Source: a virus (taxonomy: Duplodnaviria > Heunggongvirae > Uroviricota > Caudoviricetes). Taken from it: a stretch of 14,216 nucleotides of DNA. The notes beneath the pieces are model-generated. The model made no database searches. It was not told the DNA's origin and worked only from the letters and a program-made list of their open reading frames with translations. Shown here piece after piece: positions 1-14,216 of this stretch. A program made the translations under genes and the position numbers. The stretch is from IMG/VR virus record IMGVR_UViG_2563366885_000002, one strand, 5' to 3'. Within the stretch, counting starts at the first letter, position 1; each line of letters begins with the position of its first letter.

Positions 1-1061
1 AGACGGTGCGATGCTACCTGTTGCTCATTACTGTAGATCCGTAGTTCATCATCCAGCGAGATCCGTATTGATACCGGCTGGCCACACAGGCTTTCCGGTA
101 CGCTGTAACGGTTCCCGCCAACCTCGATATAGCTATCCCAGGAGACATGACGGATATCGAAATAGCTGGTATCGAAGTCCGTACCCGGCAGCGGATGCAG
201 ATGCTCCTGTTCCTGCGTGAAGCGCTGTTCCGGTGTCTGCCTGAACTGGCGAAGTTCTCGCCTGTCAGCAACGTCAGCCATCCACTGCTCCAGTAGCTGG
301 TTAACATGGGCGAAGCTGTCGAACCGGCGGTACCGGATGAAGAAGTTTTCCTTGAGGTATTTCACCATCCGTTCAACCTTACCTTTGGTTCTGGCCCTTC
401 GTGGACGGCAGGCCCGTGGCAGGAAGCCATAGTGATCGGCCAGCAGCAGGAACCCGGAGTTGAACACCACCTTCCCGTTGTTATTTTTCAGCACTGCGGC
501 TTTCTGGTTATCGACCAGCACGGTTTTCACGCTACCGCCGAAGTAGCGAAAGGCGCGGACCAGTGACTCATAGGTATGTTCAGCATCCTGCTTTGGTGCC
601 GCGAAGACATGGAAGCGACGTGAGAACCCCAGCGTATTAACCGCGAAGTTAACCCTGCATCGTTGCCCGGCAACCTCAGCCTCAACTTCTCCCCAGTCAT
701 GCTGTAGCTGGTAACCGGGCTGAGTTTCGAAGCGAACCGTTTTCTTCGATGGCCGCATCTTACGTTTGGGCTGGATGTAGTAGCGCAACATGGAACGGCC
801 ACCGGTATAACCCATCGCTTTGATTTCCGCCAGGATGACCTCGCCGTTCCAGACGTTCTCAGCCAGACGCATATCTATATAGTCCATGAACGGCTTGAGT
901 TTGGCCATTTTGTGGCGTGTTTTTCTGGCCGGAGGTTCCGGGTATTTCAGGTACCGTCTGACGGTCCGCTCAGAGCAACCAACCTGAGTGGCAATATCAA
1001 CAATATACGCACCTTGCTGGCGCATTTGCTTTATCATGTAAAAATCCTCTCTGCTCAGCAT
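1..1061 (-). CDS. istA: IS21-family transposase IstA, N-terminal 353 codons; the C-terminus lies beyond the window start.
   Basis: Reverse-strand translation from ATG 1061-1059 (alternative ATG 1037-1035) reads MLSREDFYMIKQMRQQGAYIVDIATQVGCSERTVRRYLKYPEPPARKTRHK..., an HTH-like N-terminus. DDE-type catalytic residues sit in the contexts QLQHDWGE, VLVDNQK and RTKGKVER. The frame stays open to position 1, which is why it is absent from the ORF track (no stop in window). Recognised from memory as IS21/IS100-like IstA. Confidence 0.85.
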   Translation of the reverse strand, partial: MLSREDFYMIKQMRQQGAYIVDIATQVGCSERTVRRYLKYPEPPARKTRHKMAKLKPFMDYIDMRLAENVWNGEVILAEIKAMGYTGGRSMLRYYIQPKRKMRPSKKTVRFETQPGYQLQHDWGEVEAEVAGQRCRVNFAVNTLGFSRRFHVFAAPKQDAEHTYESLVRAFRYFGGSVKTVLVDNQKAAVLKNNNGKVVFNSGFLLLADHYGFLPRACRPRRARTKGKVERMVKYLKENFFIRYRRFDSFAHVNQLLEQWMADVADRRELRQFRQTPEQRFTQEQEHLHPLPGTDFDTSYFDIRHVSWDSYIEVGGNRYSVPESLCGQPVSIRISLDDELRIYSNEQQVASHR

Positions 1062-1162
1062 GAGTGTTCCCTTTGTGGTGTAGGAACCTTAAGGAAACAA
1101 CATGTTGGGTGGAGCGGACAATCCAAATGGTGAATTACTGTCTTATATCATTGGCGCTGACA
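1..1162 (-). mobile_element. IS21-family insertion sequence, partial: left end plus most of istA; the element continues beyond the window start. Phage-proximal boundary is approximate (about 1150-1165).
   Basis: The minus-strand frame encodes an IstA-type transposase (see CDS). About 100 bp of non-coding sequence separates the istA start (1061) from the first protein-like phage codons, the usual place for an IS21-family terminal repeat. Plus-strand CTGACA at 1157-1162 would give a 5'-TG tip on the element strand. The exact terminus cannot be fixed without a reference IS sequence. Confidence 0.7.
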
Positions 1163-1282
1163 GAAGTACGGGCCAGAGCGCAGCAGGCAGCCAGCAACGC
1201 CGAGAAAATTGCCCGTAAGGGGGGACTGTCAAGCGACGCAGTACAGGCGCTTCGTCGCGAGATTCTGGGGATTGCCACATGA
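1163..1282 (+). pseudogene. 3' remnant of the gene preceding the large terminase (probably the small terminase / DNA-packaging subunit), truncated by the IS insertion.
   Basis: The frame ends at TGA 1280-1282, overlapping the terminase ATG 1279-1281 (ATGA coupling, typical of small/large terminase pairs). Protein-like sequence (...ALTEVRARAQQAASNAEKIARKGGLSSDAVQALRREILGIAT) begins only near 1155-1165; upstream the same frame reads Trp/Cys-rich sequence that looks like IS-end DNA. Gene identity is inferred from position only. Confidence 0.45.
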
Positions 1283-2874: not shown

Positions 2875-4370
2875 TGGCGAGGGGTATCTGGGTTTCACCC
2901 GATGAATTTGTTGCTTTTTCTGAGCCTCAGAAATCACTGACCGCGCAGATTGCCTCCCGCAGCCGCGCGATCGACTTTTACGGACTGGGCATGTATCTGC
3001 CCAATCCTGATCCCATTCTCAAGGCTCAGGGACGGGATATCCGTATCTACCGCGAACTGCGCACCGACCCGCTGGTTGGGGGCTGTATCCGCAGACGTAA
3101 AGCAGCGCTCAAATCACTGGAGCGTGGACTGGAGCGCGGTCACGCTTCTGCCCGGGTCTTCCGTTTCATCCGCGACATGCTCGACGATCTGGATCTGTCC
3201 CGCATCATCGGTGAGATGAGTGATGCCGTGCTCTACGGGTATCAGCCCTGTGAAATCATGTGGGGCCGTTCGGTCAGGGCGTGGGCAGTGACGGATATTG
3301 TCGGCAAACCGCCTGAGTGGTTTCAGTTTGATACGGACAACTGCCTGCGCTTCCGGGCGCGTGATGCGGGTGTGGAGGGTGAGCTGCTGTCACCGTCAAA
3401 ATTCGTGGTGCCGGCACAGGATGCCTCGTATGACAATCCTTACGGTTTCCCGGACCTGTCCATGTGCTTCTGGCCGGTCGCCTTCAAGAAAGGCGGGATG
3501 AAATTCTGGCTCCGCTTTGCCGAAAAGTTTGGCTCCCCGTGGGTGATCGGTAAGCACCCGAGGGGTGCAAATGATGCAGAGATTGAAAAACTGCTGGACT
3601 CCATGGAGCAGATGGTGGAGGACGCGGTGGCCGCCATCCCCGATGACAGCAGCATCGAACTCAAAGCCGCGGATGGTAAGGCGGACAGCAGCGAGGTATT
3701 CCGCGAGCTGATCACACTGTCACGCAGTGAGATCTCCATTGCATTACTTGGTCAGAATCAGACCACGGAAGCGAACAGTAACAAGGCCTCTGCACAGGCC
3801 GGGCTGGAGGTAACGGCTGATATCCGCGATGCGGATGCGGACATAATTCAGGCAGCAGTGAATCAGGTTATCAGAACGGTGGTCACCCTGAACTTCGGCG
3901 ATGTGCCGTGTCCGGTCTGGGCCATGTGGGAACAGGAGACCATTGATGACACCCGCGCCACCCGCGACGAAAAACTCACCCGGGCGGGTCTGCGTCTGAC
4001 CCCGCAATACTTTAAGCGTGAGTACCAACTGCAGGACGGCGATATTGACGAGACATCACCGTCGGAACGCCAGAATAACATGCTGCCGCTGTCATTTGCC
4101 GAGGCGATTGATGCCGATATTCAGGCTCAGCAGCAGCTTGACGACGCGCTGGACATTCTGATGAACGGAGGTGTGTTAAATGGCACGCTGGAACCCGTCC
4201 TGGCACCTCTGTTTAAGCGGGTCGAAAACGGGGTTAACCCGACTGAGCTGCTGGGCGAACTGGCGGAGCTCTACCCTCAGATGAACACGGACGATCTGCA
4301 GGAACGGCTGGCCCGTATTCTCTTTGTGGCAAATATCTGGGGACGTCTGCATGAGCGTGACAACGGCTGA
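2874..4370 (+). CDS. Phage portal protein (Mu gp29-type, DUF935-like).
   Basis: 498-aa ORF directly coupled to the terminase (TGATG overlap at 2872-2876). Size and position between the large terminase and the F-like gene match the Mu-type head module. Family assignment is from memory and synteny, not a search. Confidence 0.8.
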   Translation: MARGIWVSPDEFVAFSEPQKSLTAQIASRSRAIDFYGLGMYLPNPDPILKAQGRDIRIYRELRTDPLVGGCIRRRKAALKSLERGLERGHASARVFRFIRDMLDDLDLSRIIGEMSDAVLYGYQPCEIMWGRSVRAWAVTDIVGKPPEWFQFDTDNCLRFRARDAGVEGELLSPSKFVVPAQDASYDNPYGFPDLSMCFWPVAFKKGGMKFWLRFAEKFGSPWVIGKHPRGANDAEIEKLLDSMEQMVEDAVAAIPDDSSIELKAADGKADSSEVFRELITLSRSEISIALLGQNQTTEANSNKASAQAGLEVTADIRDADADIIQAAVNQVIRTVVTLNFGDVPCPVWAMWEQETIDDTRATRDEKLTRAGLRLTPQYFKREYQLQDGDIDETSPSERQNNMLPLSFAEAIDADIQAQQQLDDALDILMNGGVLNGTLEPVLAPLFKRVENGVNPTELLGELAELYPQMNTDDLQERLARILFVANIWGRLHERDNG

Positions 4371-5172
4371 ACTGGCGTACTGCATGACGCTTCCCCCGAA
4401 GCGGGCAGTCAGTTACCTGAAGTCCAAAGGGTATCAGATTACCTGGGACTGGGAAGAAATGTGGCAGGAGGCCCATGCCCGCGCCTTTACCGTTGCTAAA
4501 GTGACCCGCCTGGATATCCTGGAAGATATTCGCGGGGCACTGCAGCAGGCTGTCGATGAAGGAAAAACCGATCGCTGGTTCCGGCAGGAGCTGGAGCCGG
4601 TGCTGAAGCGTAAGGGATGGTGGGGACCACGTGACACGACTGACCCGGTAACGGGTAAGCCGGTCACCATTCAGCAGGGCAGTCCGTGGCGGCTCGATAC
4701 CATCTTTCGCACCAATATGTCCGTACTCTACAGCGCCGGTCGTTGGGCGGAACAGATGGAAAACGTCGACGACAGGCCGTACTGGATGTATACCGGCATC
4801 AACGACAGCCATACCCGCAGGAGCCATCTGGCGCTGCATGGTCTGGTGCTGCGCTGGGATGACCCGTTCTGGCAGGCATTTTACCCGCCGAACGGCTGGC
4901 GCTGCCGCTGTAGTGTGATTGCCCTGAGTGCGGCGGATGTACGTGCCCGTGGCCTGAAGGTTATCAGCTCCGGCTCTGCCATGGGCCAGGAACTGAAACT
5001 GGTCTCAGAGAAAACCGGCGAAATGCGGAACGTGGCCACCTTTAATACCGGCACCACGAAGGTGACCACCGACGTCGGCTGGTCTTATGCACCGGGGGCA
5101 GCATACCGTCCCGACCTGGCCCGCTATCAGGGTACGCTTCAGCCACTGGCACAACAGGAACTGAGAGGATAA
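4351..5172 (+). CDS. Head morphogenesis / minor head protein (phage Mu F-like, gp30-type).
   Basis: About 273 aa from ATG 4351; the ORF track starts at TTG 4324 and another in-frame ATG is at 4384. It overlaps the portal 3' end by 20 nt. Conserved-looking block ...YWMYTGINDSHTRRSHLALHGLVLRWDDPFWQAFYPPNGWRCRC... resembles the Mu F / SPP1 gp7 family. It follows the portal as in Mu. Confidence 0.75.
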   Translation: MSVTTAELAYCMTLPPKRAVSYLKSKGYQITWDWEEMWQEAHARAFTVAKVTRLDILEDIRGALQQAVDEGKTDRWFRQELEPVLKRKGWWGPRDTTDPVTGKPVTIQQGSPWRLDTIFRTNMSVLYSAGRWAEQMENVDDRPYWMYTGINDSHTRRSHLALHGLVLRWDDPFWQAFYPPNGWRCRCSVIALSAADVRARGLKVISSGSAMGQELKLVSEKTGEMRNVATFNTGTTKVTTDVGWSYAPGAAYRPDLARYQGTLQPLAQQELRG

Positions 5173-5633: not shown

Positions 5634-5679
5634 GTTTTCTCTCTTCAGGCGGGTGATTTATCATTGCCAGCGAATGAGG

Positions 5680-5720
5680 GGCTGTATTACCTTTATAAAG
5701 GCTTTACAGCCTCTGTTTTA
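5680..5720 (+). terminator. Candidate hairpin / intrinsic terminator after the G-like gene.
   Basis: Extended imperfect palindrome GGCTGTA-ttac-CCTTTATAAAGG-ctt-TACAGCC (5680-5711), with a perfect 12-bp internal palindrome, followed by the T-rich stretch tctgtttta. It could alternatively be a protein-binding site. Confidence 0.35.
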
Positions 5721-5759: not shown

Positions 5760-5800
5760 CTCCCCTGATGTTTTCTAAAGCAGATTAAAATCGCCGGGCC
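5760..5800 (+). promoter_or_regulatory. Candidate activator-dependent late promoter upstream of the protease/scaffold gene (position equivalent to Mu P_I).
   Basis: TAAAAT at 5786-5791 is a good -10. The best -35 candidate is poor (cTGAtg around 5765-5770), as expected for a promoter that needs a C-type activator. It lies about 55 bp upstream of ATG 5848 in a 214-bp non-coding gap. Confidence 0.3.
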
Positions 5801-5847
5801 TGCATTTCTCACAAACTGTCTCCGACAACATAACGCGGGACAGCAAA

Positions 5848-6963
5848 ATGTCAGCCATTCACATTTTTAAAGCCGGTACTCATACCGATATGCACGGCAA
5901 AAAACTGCCGTTCACGCCAGACGATCTTGCCGCCTGCGTGAAAGCCTATGACCCGTCCGTCCATGAAGCACCACTCGTGATTGGTCATCCCAGAACGGAA
6001 GACCCGGCGTGGGGCTGGGTGAAAGCCCTGTCGCTCAGCGGCGTCGATCTGATGGCAGAGCCTGCCCAGCTGGACCCGCAGTTTGCTGAGATGGTCACCG
6101 ACGGACGATTCAAAAAAGTGTCCGCCTCTTTCTACCTCCCGGATTCACCGTCCAATCCGAAGCCCGGCGTGCTCTACCTTCGCCATGTGGGCTTTCTCGG
6201 GGCACAGCCACCTTCCGTCAAGGGGCTGAAACAGGTGTCCTTCAGTGAGCAGGAAGAAGGTGTGGTGGAGTTCGCCGACTGGCAGGCCATCACGAATGCC
6301 TCCCTGTGGGGAAAGCTGCGCGATTTTCTGATCGCCCGCTTCAGTCTGGACGAGGCAGAAAAAGTCCTGCCGGAATGGCAGCTCAACAGTCTGCGCGAAG
6401 AGGCGTACCGCGACACACTGTCGCAGGATGCAGCAGGTGCACAATTCAGTGAGACAGGCCCGGGGCCGTCTTCCGCAAGTAACGAGGAATCATCGATGAC
6501 AAAAGAAGAGATTGAAGCCCTTCAGGAGGAGAACCGCCGCCTGAAGCAGCAGGCTGCTGATCGCGATGCGCGTGATGCACAGGTCAGACAGGAGCAACTG
6601 CATAAGGACAATGTGGCCTTTGCAGAAAAACTGGTCGCAGAGGGCCGTCTGGCTCCCCGCGCCTCCTCCGTGGTGGTTGCCCTGCTGGATGCCGTCGCCG
6701 GTGGCGACAAGCCGGTGGAGTTTGCTGAGGGGGAAAGCCGCACACCGCTGGCCACCGCCTTTCGTTCATTGCTCTCCGACGGGGAGCCGGTGATGAATTT
6801 CGCCGAACAGGCCACAAAAGAGCGTGTCGGCGACACGGTGAAGGTGGATGTGGCAGAGTTTGCGGAAGCCGATCCTGAGCGTCTGGCCCTGCATCAGAAA
6901 GCAGTGGCCCTGTCCAAAAAAGAAGGCATCAGCTATGAGGCTGCTGTCGCACGCTGCCTGTAA
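5848..6963 (+). CDS. Prohead protease / scaffold protein (phage Mu I-like, gp32-type).
   Basis: 371-aa ORF, first gene after the intergenic gap and directly upstream of the major head gene. The C-terminal third is Glu/Ala/Arg-rich and helical-looking (EEIEALQEENRRLKQQAADRDARDAQVRQEQL...), consistent with a scaffold domain. Confidence 0.75.
   Translation: MSAIHIFKAGTHTDMHGKKLPFTPDDLAACVKAYDPSVHEAPLVIGHPRTEDPAWGWVKALSLSGVDLMAEPAQLDPQFAEMVTDGRFKKVSASFYLPDSPSNPKPGVLYLRHVGFLGAQPPSVKGLKQVSFSEQEEGVVEFADWQAITNASLWGKLRDFLIARFSLDEAEKVLPEWQLNSLREEAYRDTLSQDAAGAQFSETGPGPSSASNEESSMTKEEIEALQEENRRLKQQAADRDARDAQVRQEQLHKDNVAFAEKLVAEGRLAPRASSVVVALLDAVAGGDKPVEFAEGESRTPLATAFRSLLSDGEPVMNFAEQATKERVGDTVKVDVAEFAEADPERLALHQKAVALSKKEGISYEAAVARCL
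6496..6963 (+). CDS. Nested in-frame scaffold protein (Mu Z-like), an internal initiation product of the protease/scaffold gene.
   Basis: ATG 6496-6498 is in frame with 5848 and preceded by GAGGAA (6484-6489). The product would be MTKEEIEALQEENRRLKQQ... (155 aa), the coiled-coil-like C-terminal part. This mirrors the Mu I/Z arrangement recalled from the literature. Confidence 0.5.
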   Translation: MTKEEIEALQEENRRLKQQAADRDARDAQVRQEQLHKDNVAFAEKLVAEGRLAPRASSVVVALLDAVAGGDKPVEFAEGESRTPLATAFRSLLSDGEPVMNFAEQATKERVGDTVKVDVAEFAEADPERLALHQKAVALSKKEGISYEAAVARCL

Positions 6964-9442: not shown

Positions 9443-10859
9443 CTATCTGCATGGTCCCGAAACCATTGAGGTGGAAAACGGTGCCCGCCCGGTTAAAACG
9501 GTGAAATCTGCCGTTATTGGCCTGATTGGTACCGCCCCGATGGGGGATGTCAATACGCTGGTACAGTGCCTGTCTGAGAAAGACGCAGCGGCATTTGGCA
9601 GCCAGTTCACCGGCTTTACCATTCCGCAGGCGCTGGATGCGATTTATGACCATGGTGCAGGTACCGTTCTGGTCATTAACGTCCTCGACCCGGCGAAACA
9701 TAAAACGGCGATCGAGGATGAGGTGGTTACCTTTGACAAATCGACAGGGCAGGCCAGACTGGCGCATCCGGTTGTCGCTAATGTGGTGGTGAAAAACAGT
9801 GAAGGCAGCACCTCCCACACGGCGAACACGGACTACCGTGTTGATGCGCAGGCGGGTGTGCTCACGAACCTGGGCAAGGCTATTGAGGCCGGTGGCAGCG
9901 TGAAGGTGAGCTATGAGTACGCGGACCCGTCGAAGGTGACTGCGGCGGACATCATCGGCGGGGTGAACAGCGCCGGAAACCGAACCGGCATGAAGCTGCT
10001 TAACGACAGCTTCAACCTGTACGGCTATTTCGCCAAAATTCTGATTGCGCCGGTGTTCTGCACCCAGAAGAGTGTCGCAGTTGAGCTTATCGCCATGGCA
10101 GAGAAGCTGGGCGCGGTAACCTACATTGATGCGCCTGTCGGTACCACCTTTGCACAGGCTCTGGCAGGTCGTGGCCCGGAAGGCACCATCAACTTCAATA
10201 CCAGCTCCGACCGCGTCCGTCTGTGCTATCCGCATGTGAAGGTATATGACCCGGTGACAAACACAGAGCGTCTGGAGCCGCTCAGCCAGCGTGCAGCAGG
10301 TCTGCGTGCCAGAGTCGATCTGGACAAGGGCTACTGGTGGTCATCCTCCAATCAGGAGATTCTGGGGATCACCGGCGTGGAGCGCCAGCTGTCCGCGATG
10401 ATTGATGACCCGCAGAGTGAGGTGAACCTGCTTAACGAACAGGGGATCACCACGGTATTCAGCAGTTACGGCAGCGGCCTTCGTCTGTGGGGTAACCGGA
10501 CGGCAGCATGGCCAACGGTCACCCATATGCGTAACTTTGAGAACGTTCGCCGCACCGGTGATGTGATCAACGAGTCCATTCGTTATTTCAGCCAGCAGTA
10601 CATCGACATGCCGATTACTCAGGCGCTGATTGATGCACTGACGGAGTCGGTCAACGCCTACGGTCGCAAAATGACTGGTGATGGTGCGGTACTGGGCTTC
10701 CGTTGCTGGTTTGATCCGGCCCGCAATCCGGAGACGGAGCTGGCCGCCGGGCACCTGTTGCTGAGCTACAAATATACGCCACCACCGCCGCTGGAGCGAC
10801 TGACGTTTGAGACTGAGATCACCTCGGAATACCTGTTAACCCTGAAAGGGGGCAACTGA
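9432..10859 (+). CDS. Contractile tail sheath protein (Mu L-like, gp39-type).
   Basis: 475-aa ORF with a strong Shine-Dalgarno (GGAGGA, 9421-9426). It lies directly upstream of the tube gene; size is typical of sheath proteins. Confidence 0.82.
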   Translation: MAANYLHGPETIEVENGARPVKTVKSAVIGLIGTAPMGDVNTLVQCLSEKDAAAFGSQFTGFTIPQALDAIYDHGAGTVLVINVLDPAKHKTAIEDEVVTFDKSTGQARLAHPVVANVVVKNSEGSTSHTANTDYRVDAQAGVLTNLGKAIEAGGSVKVSYEYADPSKVTAADIIGGVNSAGNRTGMKLLNDSFNLYGYFAKILIAPVFCTQKSVAVELIAMAEKLGAVTYIDAPVGTTFAQALAGRGPEGTINFNTSSDRVRLCYPHVKVYDPVTNTERLEPLSQRAAGLRARVDLDKGYWWSSSNQEILGITGVERQLSAMIDDPQSEVNLLNEQGITTVFSSYGSGLRLWGNRTAAWPTVTHMRNFENVRRTGDVINESIRYFSQQYIDMPITQALIDALTESVNAYGRKMTGDGAVLGFRCWFDPARNPETELAAGHLLLSYKYTPPPPLERLTFETEITSEYLLTLKGGN

Positions 10860-11380
10860 TGTCAAAGATTGAGATAAACCGCATCACGAATGCCAACATC
10901 TATCTGGATGGTACTAACCTGCTGGGACGGGCTGAGGAAGTTAAACTCCCCGATGTCTCCATGATTATGCAGGAACACAAGGCGCTGGGGATGGTGGGTA
11001 AGGTGGAACTCCCGGCTGGTTTTGACAAACTGGAAGGCGAAATCAAATGGAACAGCTTTTACCGCGATGCGATGCTGTCTGCCGCGAACCCGTACAGGTC
11101 GCTGGCACTGCAGTGTCGTTCCAGCGTCCAGCGCTACAGCTCGCAGGGGCTGATTGACGAAATCCCGCTGGTCACCTTCCTGACGATTATGTTCAAGAAG
11201 AACCCGCTGGGGACGTTCAAACAGCACGAGAACGCCGAGTTCTCCAGTAGCTTCACCTGCACGTATATCAGACAGGTACTGGATGGTGAAGAGCTGCTGC
11301 AACTGGACTATCTGGCCAACATCTTCCGGGTCGGCGGTGTTGATCAACTGACTGACTACCGTATCAATATCGGGGGCTGA
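10859..11380 (+). CDS. Tail tube protein (Mu M-like / P2 FII-like).
   Basis: 173-aa ORF coupled to the sheath gene by a TGATG overlap (10857-10861). Size and position between the sheath and the chaperone/tape-measure genes fit a tube protein. Confidence 0.72.
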   Translation: MSKIEINRITNANIYLDGTNLLGRAEEVKLPDVSMIMQEHKALGMVGKVELPAGFDKLEGEIKWNSFYRDAMLSAANPYRSLALQCRSSVQRYSSQGLIDEIPLVTFLTIMFKKNPLGTFKQHENAEFSSSFTCTYIRQVLDGEELLQLDYLANIFRVGGVDQLTDYRINIGG

Positions 11381-11382
11381 CG

Positions 11383-11664
11383 GTGAGTGTTGAACTGACG
11401 GATAAAGGAGGACGATGTGCGGCACTGGGCATGTCAAATGGTACGTGGTTTACCCTCCTTGATATTCCGGGGGTGGAAACCCTTTTTAATACCCGTAAAA
11501 CCAATGACCCGATTGACTGCACACGTTCAAAGGCCCGCAAACTGGCGGATTTGATTGAAGCATGGGAGCCTCCCGACCACTGGTTCTCCGGCATCGGCAA
11601 ATCTGAGGGAAAGACGCTTCTCATCGCTTTCCTGCGTAACTGCAAGGGGTTTCGCACTTGCTGA
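11383..11664 (+). CDS. Hypothetical small protein between the tail tube and chaperone genes; possible accessory (moron-like) gene.
   Basis: 93 aa from GTG 11383, with GGGGG (11372-11376) as a weak Shine-Dalgarno; an alternative ATG at 11431 gives 77 aa. Protein-like composition with four Cys. It is followed by a clean hairpin terminator. I could not assign a family. Confidence 0.45.
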   Translation: MSVELTDKGGRCAALGMSNGTWFTLLDIPGVETLFNTRKTNDPIDCTRSKARKLADLIEAWEPPDHWFSGIGKSEGKTLLIAFLRNCKGFRTC

Positions 11665-11670
11665 CATCAC

Positions 11671-11700
11671 AGGGGCTCCGGCCCCTTCTTCTTAATCTCC
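11671..11700 (+). terminator. Rho-independent terminator / attenuator.
   Basis: Perfect 6-bp GC-rich stem AGGGGC (11671-11676), loop TCCG, stem GCCCCT (11681-11686), then the T-rich tail tcttcttaatctcc. The reverse complement has no T-tract, so it is oriented for + strand transcripts. Confidence 0.5.
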
Positions 11701-11761
11701 TTTAATATCCGTCACGCGCTTCTCCCGACATACTGCCCTGAACTTACACAGGAGCACAATC

Positions 11762-12097
11762 ATGTCACAGACCCCATCCGATACTTTTAAATTGTCTTAT
11801 CCCTTCACCACTGCTGCAGGCACCAGAATTGAGCTGGTTGAACTGAAACGCCTGACGGTAAAAGACCTGAAGCAGGTGCGCAAAATCAGCAAAAACCCGG
11901 CAGACTGGGACGAACCGCTGATTGCCCGCAGTACTGGTCTTCTCCCGGAAGATCTCGACAATATGGATCTGGCTGATTACCTGCAGTTACAGAAACGATT
12001 TCAGCTCATCACGGGGATGGGTGAGAGCAACCAGGGCGCTGACGCAGGCGCAGGGGCTGCTGGCGAGATGGTTCCGGTTTCAGCCGGGGGAGATTGA
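11762..12097 (+). CDS. Tail assembly chaperone, short form (lambda G / P2 E analogue).
   Basis: 111-aa ORF with AGGAG upstream, immediately ahead of the tape measure gene. The sequence SYPFTTAAGTRIELVELKRLTVKDLKQV...DEPLIARSTGL resembles P2 E-type chaperones. An overlapping out-of-frame extension ORF is present (see next feature). Confidence 0.72.
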   Translation: MSQTPSDTFKLSYPFTTAAGTRIELVELKRLTVKDLKQVRKISKNPADWDEPLIARSTGLLPEDLDNMDLADYLQLQKRFQLITGMGESNQGADAGAGAAGEMVPVSAGGD

Positions 12098-12179
12098 TGC
12101 CCTCGATACTGACGATCTGGAGATGTGGCTGGAGCAGGCTGAAGAGCAAATAAAAAGCGAGTACGGCGACAAATCATAG
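11762..12179 (+). CDS. Tail assembly chaperone, frameshift-extended form (lambda GT / P2 E+E' analogue); needs a +1 (equivalently -2) shift near 12084-12092.
   Basis: The frame of ORF 11922..12179 is +1 relative to 11762..12097. Only its 3' portion past the GGGGG run (12086-12090) reads as protein-like (...QPGEIDALDTDDLEMWLEQAEEQIKSEYGDKS); its 5' portion is Trp/Cys-rich junk. That places the shift two codons before the short-form stop. Exact coordinates of the fused product are not determinable from sequence alone. Confidence 0.5.
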
Positions 12180-12254
12180 TACAGACAGCCGCCAGTAGCG
12201 GCTGTTCTGCGTTATCCCCTCACGTCTTTTCACCTTCCCCGGAGGTTAACCACT

Positions 12255-14216
12255 ATGTCGGGACAGTTTTCAGTCGGCGTTGTTATCGGCGGGATGATTG
12301 GTAGCACATTCCGTTCTGCAATGAGCGGTACCCGCCGTGCGCTTGATTCCCTGAGCGATACCTCACGCCGCCTGCAGGAACGTCAGAACGCTTTAACCCG
12401 TGCAACAGAACGTTATGGTCAACTGGGTTCTTCCCGGATGCAGCATCTCAACAGCGAGCTGCTGCGGGTAAGCCGCACCATGGAGCAAATTGAGCGCCAG
12501 CAGCGCCGTCTGTCAGCGGCATCCGCTACCAGTGATGCGCTGAAAGCTAACCGCATGGCGCTGTATGGTCAGGGGATTGAAGCGTATGGCATGGCACAGA
12601 CTGTTTATCATACGGTTTCCCCTGCCGTTCAGCAGTCCATGTCTTTTCAGGACAAAATGATTGATATGTCGATCACCGCAAAATATGACAATAAAACGCG
12701 GGATGGACTTGCCGGACAGATAAAAGGCTGGGCGCTTAAATACAATCAGTATCAGGATGAGCTGCAGGAGGCGGTGGGTTCACTCATCAGCGACAATATT
12801 GATAATGTGTCAGATATCGGTTTTCTGATGCCGGATATTGCCCGCGCGGCAACGGCAACACGCACGTCTGCTCAGGACTGGGCAAAAGTGGCCGCAGTCT
12901 GGCAAAACTCCCTGAAAGGTGCGGCCAGAGATTTTGGTGCCGTTCAGAATATTATGGCTTATGCCGGTGACCAGGGGTCATTTGAAATCCCGGATCAGGT
13001 CAAGTGGATGCAGTCCCTGGCCCCAATGATGGCGGGTATTGCCAGTGGAAAAGAGGCTGTTGCTGAAATCGGGGCCAGTCTCCAGATAGCAAAAATCGGT
13101 GCAGGTTCCACCGACGAAGCAGCCAATAATTTTAAAAACTTTCTTACCAAAATTTTTGCCCGCGATACTCAGAAACAGTTTGCTGATCTGGGTATTGATT
13201 TGCAGGGATCTATTGCGAGTTATAAAGCTGCGGGGATCTCTCCGATTGAAGGGATGTTGAGTGTTATAGAACGTTACCTCAATGCCAAAAGCCCCGAAGC
13301 GCTGGCCGGCTTCAAATCAGCCATGAAAATAAAGAATGATACGGCAAGAGATGAGGCACTTCAGGCTCTGGCGAAAAACTTTGGTCTGGGTGATATGTTC
13401 GCGGATATGCAGGTCATGGCATTTATCCGCCCGATGCTGGCCAACATGGACAGATATCGAGAGATCCGTGCCGGTGCTCTCAGGGCTGCGGATAACGATT
13501 TGCTTGCCAGTGCTTACGATCAGCGACTGAAATCTCCCCTTGAAGCCACTAAAACACTTATGGTCAGCAGTCGCGATCTGGCAATTACGCTGGGCGATCA
13601 ATTAGCTCCATCTTTTATTTCTTTGACTCAGGAACTGCTTCCACTCATTCAGGGGGCAAAACACTGGGTAGCGACTCACCCGCAATTTGTCAGTGGGGCT
13701 TTTAAGCTCATCAGTGCGCTCCTTGCGATTAAGATAGCGACTGTTGGTCTCAAACTGGGGCTGAATCTCCTTATTTCCCCCTTTGTAAGTGTCTGGAAAA
13801 ATGCTGTTTTACTCCGGACCAACTGGCATCGACTGACTACCGCACTCGGAGAAGGTGGCAAATTACGCTGGCTTGTCACTGGATTCAGCCGACTGACCAG
13901 CGGAGGACTGAAACTCAGCAAAGTTCTGGCGGGCAGCCTCGTTCGCGGTTTTATGAGCGCTGCACGTGCCGTTCTCTGGATTGGGCGAGCGCTGATGATG
14001 AATCCCATCGGTCTCGTTATCACCGCTGTCGCGGCAGCAGCTTACCTTATCTACCGCAACTGGGGGGCTGTCAGTGGTTGGTTTAAACAGCGCTGGGCTG
14101 ACATTCAGGAAGCCTTTAACGGCGGCATTGTGGGAACTGGTAAGTTGCTGATTAACTGGTCGCCGGCAGGCCTGCTCTATAAAGCCTTTGCGGCTGCGCT
14201 GAAATATTTCGGCGTT
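12255..14216 (+). CDS. Tail tape measure protein (Mu Y-like), N-terminal 654 codons; continues beyond the window end.
   Basis: ATG 12255 is preceded by GGAGG (12241-12245). I checked by eye that the frame is open to the last base of the window. Long helical Ala/Leu/Gln-rich sequence, and hydrophobic segments near the end (LISALLAIKIATVGLKLGLNLLISPF, IGLVITAVAAAAYLIY) typical of tape measure proteins. Not in the ORF track because it has no stop in the window. Confidence 0.85.
   Translation, partial: MSGQFSVGVVIGGMIGSTFRSAMSGTRRALDSLSDTSRRLQERQNALTRATERYGQLGSSRMQHLNSELLRVSRTMEQIERQQRRLSAASATSDALKANRMALYGQGIEAYGMAQTVYHTVSPAVQQSMSFQDKMIDMSITAKYDNKTRDGLAGQIKGWALKYNQYQDELQEAVGSLISDNIDNVSDIGFLMPDIARAATATRTSAQDWAKVAAVWQNSLKGAARDFGAVQNIMAYAGDQGSFEIPDQVKWMQSLAPMMAGIASGKEAVAEIGASLQIAKIGAGSTDEAANNFKNFLTKIFARDTQKQFADLGIDLQGSIASYKAAGISPIEGMLSVIERYLNAKSPEALAGFKSAMKIKNDTARDEALQALAKNFGLGDMFADMQVMAFIRPMLANMDRYREIRAGALRAADNDLLASAYDQRLKSPLEATKTLMVSSRDLAITLGDQLAPSFISLTQELLPLIQGAKHWVATHPQFVSGAFKLISALLAIKIATVGLKLGLNLLISPFVSVWKNAVLLRTNWHRLTTALGEGGKLRWLVTGFSRLTSGGLKLSKVLAGSLVRGFMSAARAVLWIGRALMMNPIGLVITAVAAAAYLIYRNWGAVSGWFKQRWADIQEAFNGGIVGTGKLLINWSPAGLLYKAFAAALKYFGV

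Follow-up and report, generated by a model that had tools for sequence, protein, structure and literature searches.

Morons are extra genes that lie between the conserved structural genes of phages and occur patchily among close relatives, and they are defined as independent transcriptional units (review "The moron comes of age", PMC3594210). Transposable phages offer an example in Tab of the Mu-like Pseudomonas phage JBD26, an 83-residue tail-assembly blocker encoded between the terminase genes. Tab is produced in the prophage state, and its role in defence has been demonstrated (PMC10884400). The late promoters of Mu itself possess a -10 hexamer, lack a -35 element and carry a 16-bp dyad centred at -43.5 that is bound by the C protein (PMC2582627). 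Here, we consider a small gene, named orfX, that is situated between the tail tube and tail assembly chaperone genes of the viral record IMGVR_UViG_2563366885_000002. The 14,216 nucleotides (nt) of this record, hereafter the window, make up the late part of a transposable, BcepMu-like (Bcepmuvirus) prophage found in Enterobacterales.

Like a moron, orfX is an extra gene between conserved structural genes and is patchy in close relatives; unlike one, it has no promoter of its own, and the terminator behind it appears to belong to the operon. Its resemblance to Tab is one of description: each is a small protein without a recognisable family, is encoded within a transposable phage's late operon and is lacking in relatives. 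Tab, however, has been linked to prophage expression and a defence phenotype, whereas orfX is known here from sequence alone. We regard it as very probable that orfX is a real, non-structural and dispensable accessory gene. The overall explanation favoured here, covering both this status and the anatomy of the junction, is given a probability of about 0.7, and under it orfX would be a moron-like but promoter-less passenger on a late transcript rather than a classical moron.

A coding gene between the tail tube and the chaperone

The following features define the locus:

10859..11380, + strand: tail tube gene (PF04985, E 3e-53)
11383..11664, + strand: orfX, a 93-aa open reading frame (ORF), PHROG 1239 / DUF7739-like, with a GTG start 2 nt past the tube stop codon
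11762..12097, + strand: tail assembly chaperone E-like gene (PF10109, E 5.5e-21)

An earlier, sequence-only reading of the window had placed a 93-aa ORF, or 77 aa from an alternative ATG, with four Cys residues between the tube and chaperone genes. Each of these points holds: the in-frame ATG is at 11431, the Cys residues are C12, C46, C87 and C93, and the flanking genes carry the domains listed above. The same reading had entertained the idea that the interval is a non-coding spacer in which the hairpin alone matters. In favour of this idea, orfX begins with GTG and is not preceded by a strong canonical Shine-Dalgarno sequence, and an antisense ORF of like length runs through 11364-11657. The comparative data point the other way. 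Across 44 unique alleles from related prophages (878 pairs), the ratio of nonsynonymous to synonymous substitution rates (dN/dS) was 0.085 for orfX, compared with 0.023 for the tube gene and 0.205 for the chaperone gene. The sense frame is open in 44/48 alleles, whereas the antisense frames are open in 25/48 and 14/48; the antisense ORF was rejected as the gene because its frame is not conserved. Moreover, full-length homologues at 26-50% identity occur in unrelated phages, and the fold is predicted confidently. orfX is a real coding gene under purifying selection; to judge from these comparisons, the non-coding alternative is already refuted, and we assign it almost no probability.

Profile searches, which had been proposed along with structure-based ones, placed the protein in a family. 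Residues 1-93 aligned to positions 1-96 of the 96-position profile phrog_1239 (E 4.7e-48, 162 bits). The match to PF24881 (DUF7739) was confined to residues 12-67 and scored 24.7 bits (E 3.5e-05), short of the 27 bits that Pfam sets as its gathering threshold. PF24881 was nevertheless matched by 13/55 aligned relatives, with E values down to 7e-19, and close homologues carry the PF24881 tag in their source database. orfX therefore looks like a divergent, borderline DUF7739 relative that itself falls below the Pfam threshold. It belongs, in other words, to a known but uncharacterised family. A word-indexed search returned 33 close relatives from E. coli, Salmonella, Citrobacter, Serratia, Photorhabdus and Morganella, and a full profile search returned 75 representatives at the 50% identity level, almost all of 90-100 aa. 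Hits of 613-2377 aa were repetitive eukaryote-like or secreted proteins and were discarded as spurious.

The start signals had been called weak, a description that holds only in part. The N-terminus M-[ST]-V-E is conserved among homologues, however, which fixes the start at 11383, and a run of G residues lies 6 nt upstream. Other family-conserved motifs are NGTWF, TNDP, W-x-PP-x-x-W and F-x-x-C-x-GF. The four Cys residues, which had been singled out as a notable feature, lose this standing in the family alignment, where only C87 is conserved; zinc or metal binding through them was rejected on the same ground. The lower GC content noticed by eye is marginal: orfX, at 0.521, stands at the 15th percentile of the window, which averages 0.564 +/- 0.037. 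At third codon positions (GC3), orfX (0.54) does fall below the tube gene (0.70), but it matches the chaperone (0.56) and tape measure (0.58) genes, into which the drop continues.

The presence/absence comparison suggested by the sequence-only reading drew on 80 relatives from IMG/VR, all with 91-100% identity in the tube protein. The junction was found in the following states:

54/80 loci: intact orfX alone
9/80 loci: a PF13876 (N4 Gp49 / Sf6 gp66 family) gene followed by orfX
8/80 loci: orfX disrupted by a frameshift, deletion or premature stop
8/80 loci: empty
1/80 loci: an unrelated 66-aa ORF

Thus, orfX is intact in 63 of the 80 relatives and is absent (9/80) or disrupted (8/80) in the remaining 17. 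Among more distant Bcepmuviruses, the chaperone gene directly follows the tube gene in Burkholderia phiE255, Ralstonia YO107_2 and Pseudomonas Bise. Together with the eight empty loci, these phages agree with the expectation that the tube gene is normally followed directly by the chaperone gene. In at least 13 genera of Enterobacterales, orfX occupies the same junction at 51-87% identity (tube protein 91-96%); this spread indicates that it is old in the BcepMu-like lineage.

In these prophages of Enterobacterales, the interval between the tube stop codon and the hairpin described below is a hotspot for cargo. The PF13876 gene (97 aa) lies upstream of orfX and overlaps it by ATGA; its loci are L034, L042, L046, L051, L056, L063, L071, L039 and L055 (about 3525-3807). 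In L083 (3520-3720), the unrelated 66-aa ORF in the tube-chaperone slot has its own hairpin, and L100 from Pantoea stewartii (3277-4680) carries an insertion of ~1.4 kb downstream of orfX. The Photorhabdus loci L110-L113 (3001-3198) retain an N-terminally truncated remnant of ~61 aa (also P0033) that overlaps the tube gene at its 3' end, an example of a passenger gene decaying in place. Finally, L094 (NZ_PJIO01000028.1), an 8.2-kb contig labelled "Arthrobacter sp. GMC3", barely differs from the E. coli prophage, with 100% identity for tube and 98% for orfX; it is most likely enterobacterial contamination of an actinobacterial assembly.

The position of orfX also invites the view that its product is an assembly or structural accessory factor specific to this lineage of tails, such as a chaperone for the tube or a helper in tail completion. 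The gene lies between the tube and chaperone genes, is kept there in the genera counted above and gives a very weak match to the tail-chaperone profile phrog_1442 (E 0.41), which is not significant. A component of the contractile tail would be conserved wherever the tail module itself occurs. By contrast, orfX is missing or disrupted in 17/80 close relatives with nearly the same tube protein and is lacking in phiE255, Bise and YO107_2, and its homologues reside in the early regions of podoviruses and siphoviruses, which have no contractile tail. The possibility that the ORF is a conserved, known tail component, raised in the sequence-only reading as a challenge to its own proposal, does not agree with this distribution. 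A tail role is consequently very improbable; by these comparisons orfX is a dispensable accessory gene and not a part of the tail.

Probable transcription units at the junction

The sequence-only reading also described a GC-rich hairpin with a T-rich tail after the ORF, and both elements were located:

11671..11686, + strand: hairpin AGGGGC-TCCG-GCCCCT (tetraloop UCCG), probable Rho-independent terminator at the end of the late unit for head, sheath and tube
11687..11696, + strand: T-rich tail TCTTCTTAAT, overlapping the upstream half-site of the promoter dyad described below

The stem has 6 bp, five of them GC pairs, and the first 8 bases of the tail TCTTCTTAAT include 6 T, interrupted by C. 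A scan of 10000-13000 found 4 terminator-like sites where 2.8 +/- 1.9 were expected, which is not above chance; therefore, the case for the hairpin rests on the comparison of relatives. At least nine stem/loop versions, with folding energies from -9 to -24 kcal/mol, occur at this position in enterobacterial, Burkholderia and Ralstonia relatives, both with and without orfX, as judged by one-by-one inspection and folding rather than by a formal covariation test. RNAalifold applied to the intergenic region returned only a 4-bp helix, as MAFFT had misaligned the differing hairpins. Empty sites carry GGGGGCC-GCAA-GGCTCCC, GGGAGC-CTTACC-GCTCCC or GAGGGGCC-TGGT-GGCCCCTT. In phiE255, GGCCCGC-TTCG-GCGGGCC is followed by T6, the canonical form, and in YO107_2, GCCCAC-TTCG-GTGGGC is followed by T-rich sequence. 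The hairpin is missing only from L078, L085 and Bise, the last of which has no intergenic spacer. A search of 11000-12400 against Rfam (E up to 1) gave no matches. Since the same position is filled in most relatives that lack orfX, the hairpin appears to be a feature of the operon junction rather than the private terminator that had been supposed for orfX; it is a probable intrinsic terminator of the head-sheath-tube late unit.

A start signal for orfX may reside within the tube gene. The G-run at 11372-11376 falls in the last tube codons, 6 nt upstream of the orfX start, and we infer that it serves as a Shine-Dalgarno-like element. In cargo-bearing alleles, the tube 3' end before the stop codon reads GGGGGC, GGAGGG or GGGGGG; most empty-site alleles read GGCGGG, GGTGGA or GGCGGT. 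Because of this element and the 2-nt gap, orfX is probably translationally coupled to the tube gene. No sigma-70-like promoter was predicted on the + strand of 10000-12778; the tube gene may still harbour a promoter that is weak or of another type than sigma-70.

Downstream of the hairpin, a bipartite motif may mark the beginning of the next transcription unit:

11692..11735, + strand: probable late promoter, Mor/C-dependent, that would serve the chaperone and tape measure genes, with a TTAA-N6-TTAA dyad at 11692-11705, a -10-like CATACT at 11729-11734 and no -35
5776..5818, + strand: second copy of the motif, probable late promoter ahead of the gene at 5848 that encodes the head protease/scaffold

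In 46 distinct relatives, two near-invariant blocks occupy the spacer between the hairpin and the chaperone gene. The stretch between the blocks varies in sequence but not in length, and the distance from the second block to the chaperone ATG is free. RNAalifold found no convincing structure in these two blocks. The pattern TAA-N6-TTAA-WATC-N19-CAWACTG describes both 11693-11735 and 5776-5818. It recurs with one mismatch at L001 17224-17266 of Escherichia phage PhiKM, ahead of a baseplate gene, where the chance expectation was 0.02; for the motif recurrences overall, this expectation was 0-0.02. No -35-like hexamer was found at 16-18 bp spacing from CATACT, and the centre of the dyad lies about -42.5 from a predicted start near 11741. 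PhiKM encodes an activator of the Mor family (PF08765, E 1.3e-43). The C-dependent late promoters of Mu (Plys, PI, PP and Pmom) share with this motif a -10-like hexamer, the lack of a -35 and a dyad centred ~42-43 bp upstream of the predicted start. As in Mu, the copies stand ahead of late gene blocks in a phage that has a Mor/C family activator; the TTAA-N6-TTAA half-site, in contrast, was defined in this phage group and not taken from the Mu promoters. Together, these features make the motif copies probable Mor/C-dependent late promoters of this phage group. At ~5676-5719, directly behind the Mu G-like gene and with ~55 nt left before the 5776 motif, a long imperfect hairpin can be seen by eye (GAGGGGCTGTA...TACAGCCTC), followed by TGTTTT. 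This repeats the terminator-then-promoter layout of the tube-chaperone junction.

From these elements, a route for the expression of orfX can be proposed. A late transcription unit would start near 5825, comprise the head, sheath and tube genes and orfX, and be closed by the 11671-11686 hairpin. As the last cistron of this unit, orfX would be read from the late transcript with no private promoter or terminator, and coupling to the tube gene would cause it to be made late and abundantly. Right after the hairpin, the Mor/C-type promoter at 11692-11735 would restart transcription for the chaperone and tape measure genes; the data suggest that the chaperone gene is the first gene of this next unit. 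The sequence-only reading had considered the hairpin as an attenuator that lowers chaperone and tape measure expression. The hairpin may indeed end transcription upstream of these genes, but they appear to have a late promoter of their own, and it would therefore be more than an attenuator alone.

Three observations count against this arrangement. First, with its tail interrupted by C, the hairpin may terminate only partially. Second, two of the three copies served to define the motif, which leaves the third as the one independent match. Third, a GGGGC/GCCCC stem is present in every orfX-bearing locus (with the loops TCCG, TTCG, TGCG, TTAG and ATCA) and other stems are present at empty sites; this copy of the hairpin may have travelled with orfX.

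The third observation is also in keeping with the view that orfX is a classical moron, i.e., an independent unit expressed from the repressed prophage that benefits the lysogen, for instance through superinfection exclusion or anti-phage defence. The presence of orfX varies between conserved structural genes, as had been anticipated for extra cargo; the gene is small, has no function by annotation, is slightly below the window average in GC and is followed by a hairpin. Small defence morons in Mu-like late operons also have precedent (PMC10884400; PMC3594210). However, the 2-nt gap and GTG start leave no room for a promoter, no sigma-70-like + strand site is found near the gene, and hairpins occupy the junction without orfX as well. 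In addition, orfX has no match in PADLOC, its GC3 is that of the downstream tail genes, and co-resident passengers are packed with overlapping stop and start codons. A self-contained moron unit is thus unlikely, and the cargo part of the sequence-only proposal fares better than the part on a private terminator. The promoter-less passenger described at the outset is preferred, and it appears, from the homologues discussed below, to have been acquired horizontally from another type of phage.

The PHROG 1239 / DUF7739 family and possible functions

Homologues of orfX in other phages (38-54% identity by tblastn) are found in non-structural regions of unrelated genomes, in line with the view of the ORF as extra cargo. 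For example, gp22 of Shigella phage Sf6 shares a gene block with erf, abc2 and lar-like genes and is flanked by DUF2737 and ead/Ea22 genes. Further homologues include hkaH of CUS-3 and proteins of HK75, of the early region of Edwardsiella phage EPP-1 and of large phage-plasmid-like phages. Metagenomic members adjoin an integrase gene, a Bro-N gene or runs of small unknown genes. Some gene calls place the DUF7739 domain beside DUF2737, lambda P or YopX; fusions with these domains were rejected, and the calls were read as read-throughs that reveal neighbouring genes. orfX resembles the members of PHROG 1239 / DUF7739, including Sf6 gp22 and CUS-3 hkaH, in its full-length homology, its length of ~93 aa and its conserved motifs. 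It differs from them in setting, as the Sf6 and CUS-3 genes are early or accessory (the PL "ea" region) and orfX stands at the end of a late structural operon, and in charge, as most members (64%) are acidic and orfX is basic, with an isoelectric point (pI) of 8.4.

A late position would suit a protein that is associated with the virion or injected, being made with the tail proteins for delivery into the next host, e.g., as an anti-restriction or anti-defence factor. Judged from the anatomy, orfX would be co-transcribed with the sheath and tube genes. In addition, its homologue gp123 of Yersinia phage fHe-Yen8-01 is annotated as a "particle associated protein" and lies near other particle-associated proteins and an ADP-ribosyltransferase toxin. 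The annotation of gp123 is unreferenced, and no paper on it was found; the P22-like homologues sit in the early-left operon and not among virion genes; and close relatives with the same tube do without orfX. Delivery with the virion is therefore unlikely.

An AlphaFold2 model built from 20 sequences has a mean predicted local distance difference test score (pLDDT) of 88.7, a predicted template modelling score (pTM) of 0.80 and the layout beta-beta-alpha-beta-alpha-alpha-beta. The protein is soluble, with no transmembrane segment (maximum KD19 0.82). As the family is small, soluble, mobile, dispensable, fast-evolving and located among early accessory genes in other phages, a role in binding and inhibition can be tentatively suggested: orfX could be a soluble single-domain alpha/beta protein that binds and blocks a host or competing-phage protein, in anti-defence or host takeover. 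We hold this to be possible, with the odds still against it. More speculative, and rather improbable as a whole, is the extension to the entire PHROG 1239 / DUF7739 family, which would then be a novel group of small inhibitors by which phages counter defences or take over the host. Their genes could stand in the early operon, as in P22-like phages, or come last on the tube transcript, as in BcepMu-like phages. In the latter position, such an inhibitor, made along with the tube protein, might shield a late product, e.g., the tube protein, from a host abortive-infection sensor.

A further group of observations weighs against the explanation given here for orfX. The early-operon position of the P22-like homologues is hard to square with late expression of orfX, and charge is heterogeneous across the family, with orfX itself on the basic side. 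Foldseek comparison of the model with the PDB gave nothing significant; the best hit was the N-terminal domain of DapD (E 0.09). Against BFVD, only uncharacterised proteins were matched, one of them at E 7e-4. No matches were obtained in NCBIfam or in PADLOC, which covers defence systems, and the literature on DUF7739/PF24881, phrog_1239, hkaH and fHe-Yen8-01 yielded nothing relevant.

The profile of the 55-sequence family alignment likewise found no match among PDB sequences. The fold weakly resembles those of Neisseria DMP12 (3w1o) and of CdiI, an immunity protein (5j4a), at a sequence identity of just 6%. The likeness has no Foldseek support (DMP12 E 1.5), is confined to the fold and is not evidence of homology. 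A DNA-mimic function like that of DMP12 is unlikely because orfX is basic, and it was rejected.

Neighbouring genes and implications for BcepMu-like phages

The gene order of the window is supplied by the annotation of PhiKM, which is 99.9% identical to it over 10859-12260. Downstream of the chaperone gene, the tape measure gene starts at 12256. An ORF at 11922-12179 resembles an E'-like chaperone extension (phrog_8286, E 8e-34; PF06528, weak) and is offset by +1 relative to the E frame at 11762-12097 (160 mod 3 = 1). The frameshift that produces E/E' in P2 is -1. No slippery site was found for the E/E'-like pair in the window. Another stable hairpin, CAGACAGCCGC-CAGTA-GCGGCTGTTCTG, occupies 12183-12210, past the stop codon of the extension and before the tape measure gene begins, and has no T-run. 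In phiE255 and Pseudomonas phage Bise, a small reverse-strand gene lies in this interval, which may be a second variable slot.

At the left edge of the window, 3-908 (- strand) encodes a DDE transposase (PF00665 rve and PF22483 Mu-transpos_C_2) that runs off the end and that we take to be IS21 IstA-like. Beside it, at 1064-1279 (+ strand), a Mu gp27-like small terminase (PF11985) is reduced to ~40 residues from its C-terminus. The small-terminase gene thus appears to be split by an insertion sequence, and, given this interruption, the prophage copy in the window may be defective.

None of these findings would surprise a phage biologist. Nonetheless, the junction provides a testable example of how promoter-less passengers accumulate in Mu-like phages: a slot between the last structural cistron and its terminator would offer free expression with no polar effect on downstream genes, and at least three unrelated cargoes have been found in the tube-chaperone slot of relatives. 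The uncharacterised family of Sf6 gp22 and CUS-3 hkaH is hereby given a genomic behaviour, i.e., mobile, dispensable and non-structural, which makes PHROG 1239 / DUF7739 a reasonable candidate for anti-defence screens. Furthermore, the terminator-then-promoter layout suggests how late transcription may be split into units in Bcepmuvirus-type prophages of Enterobacterales.

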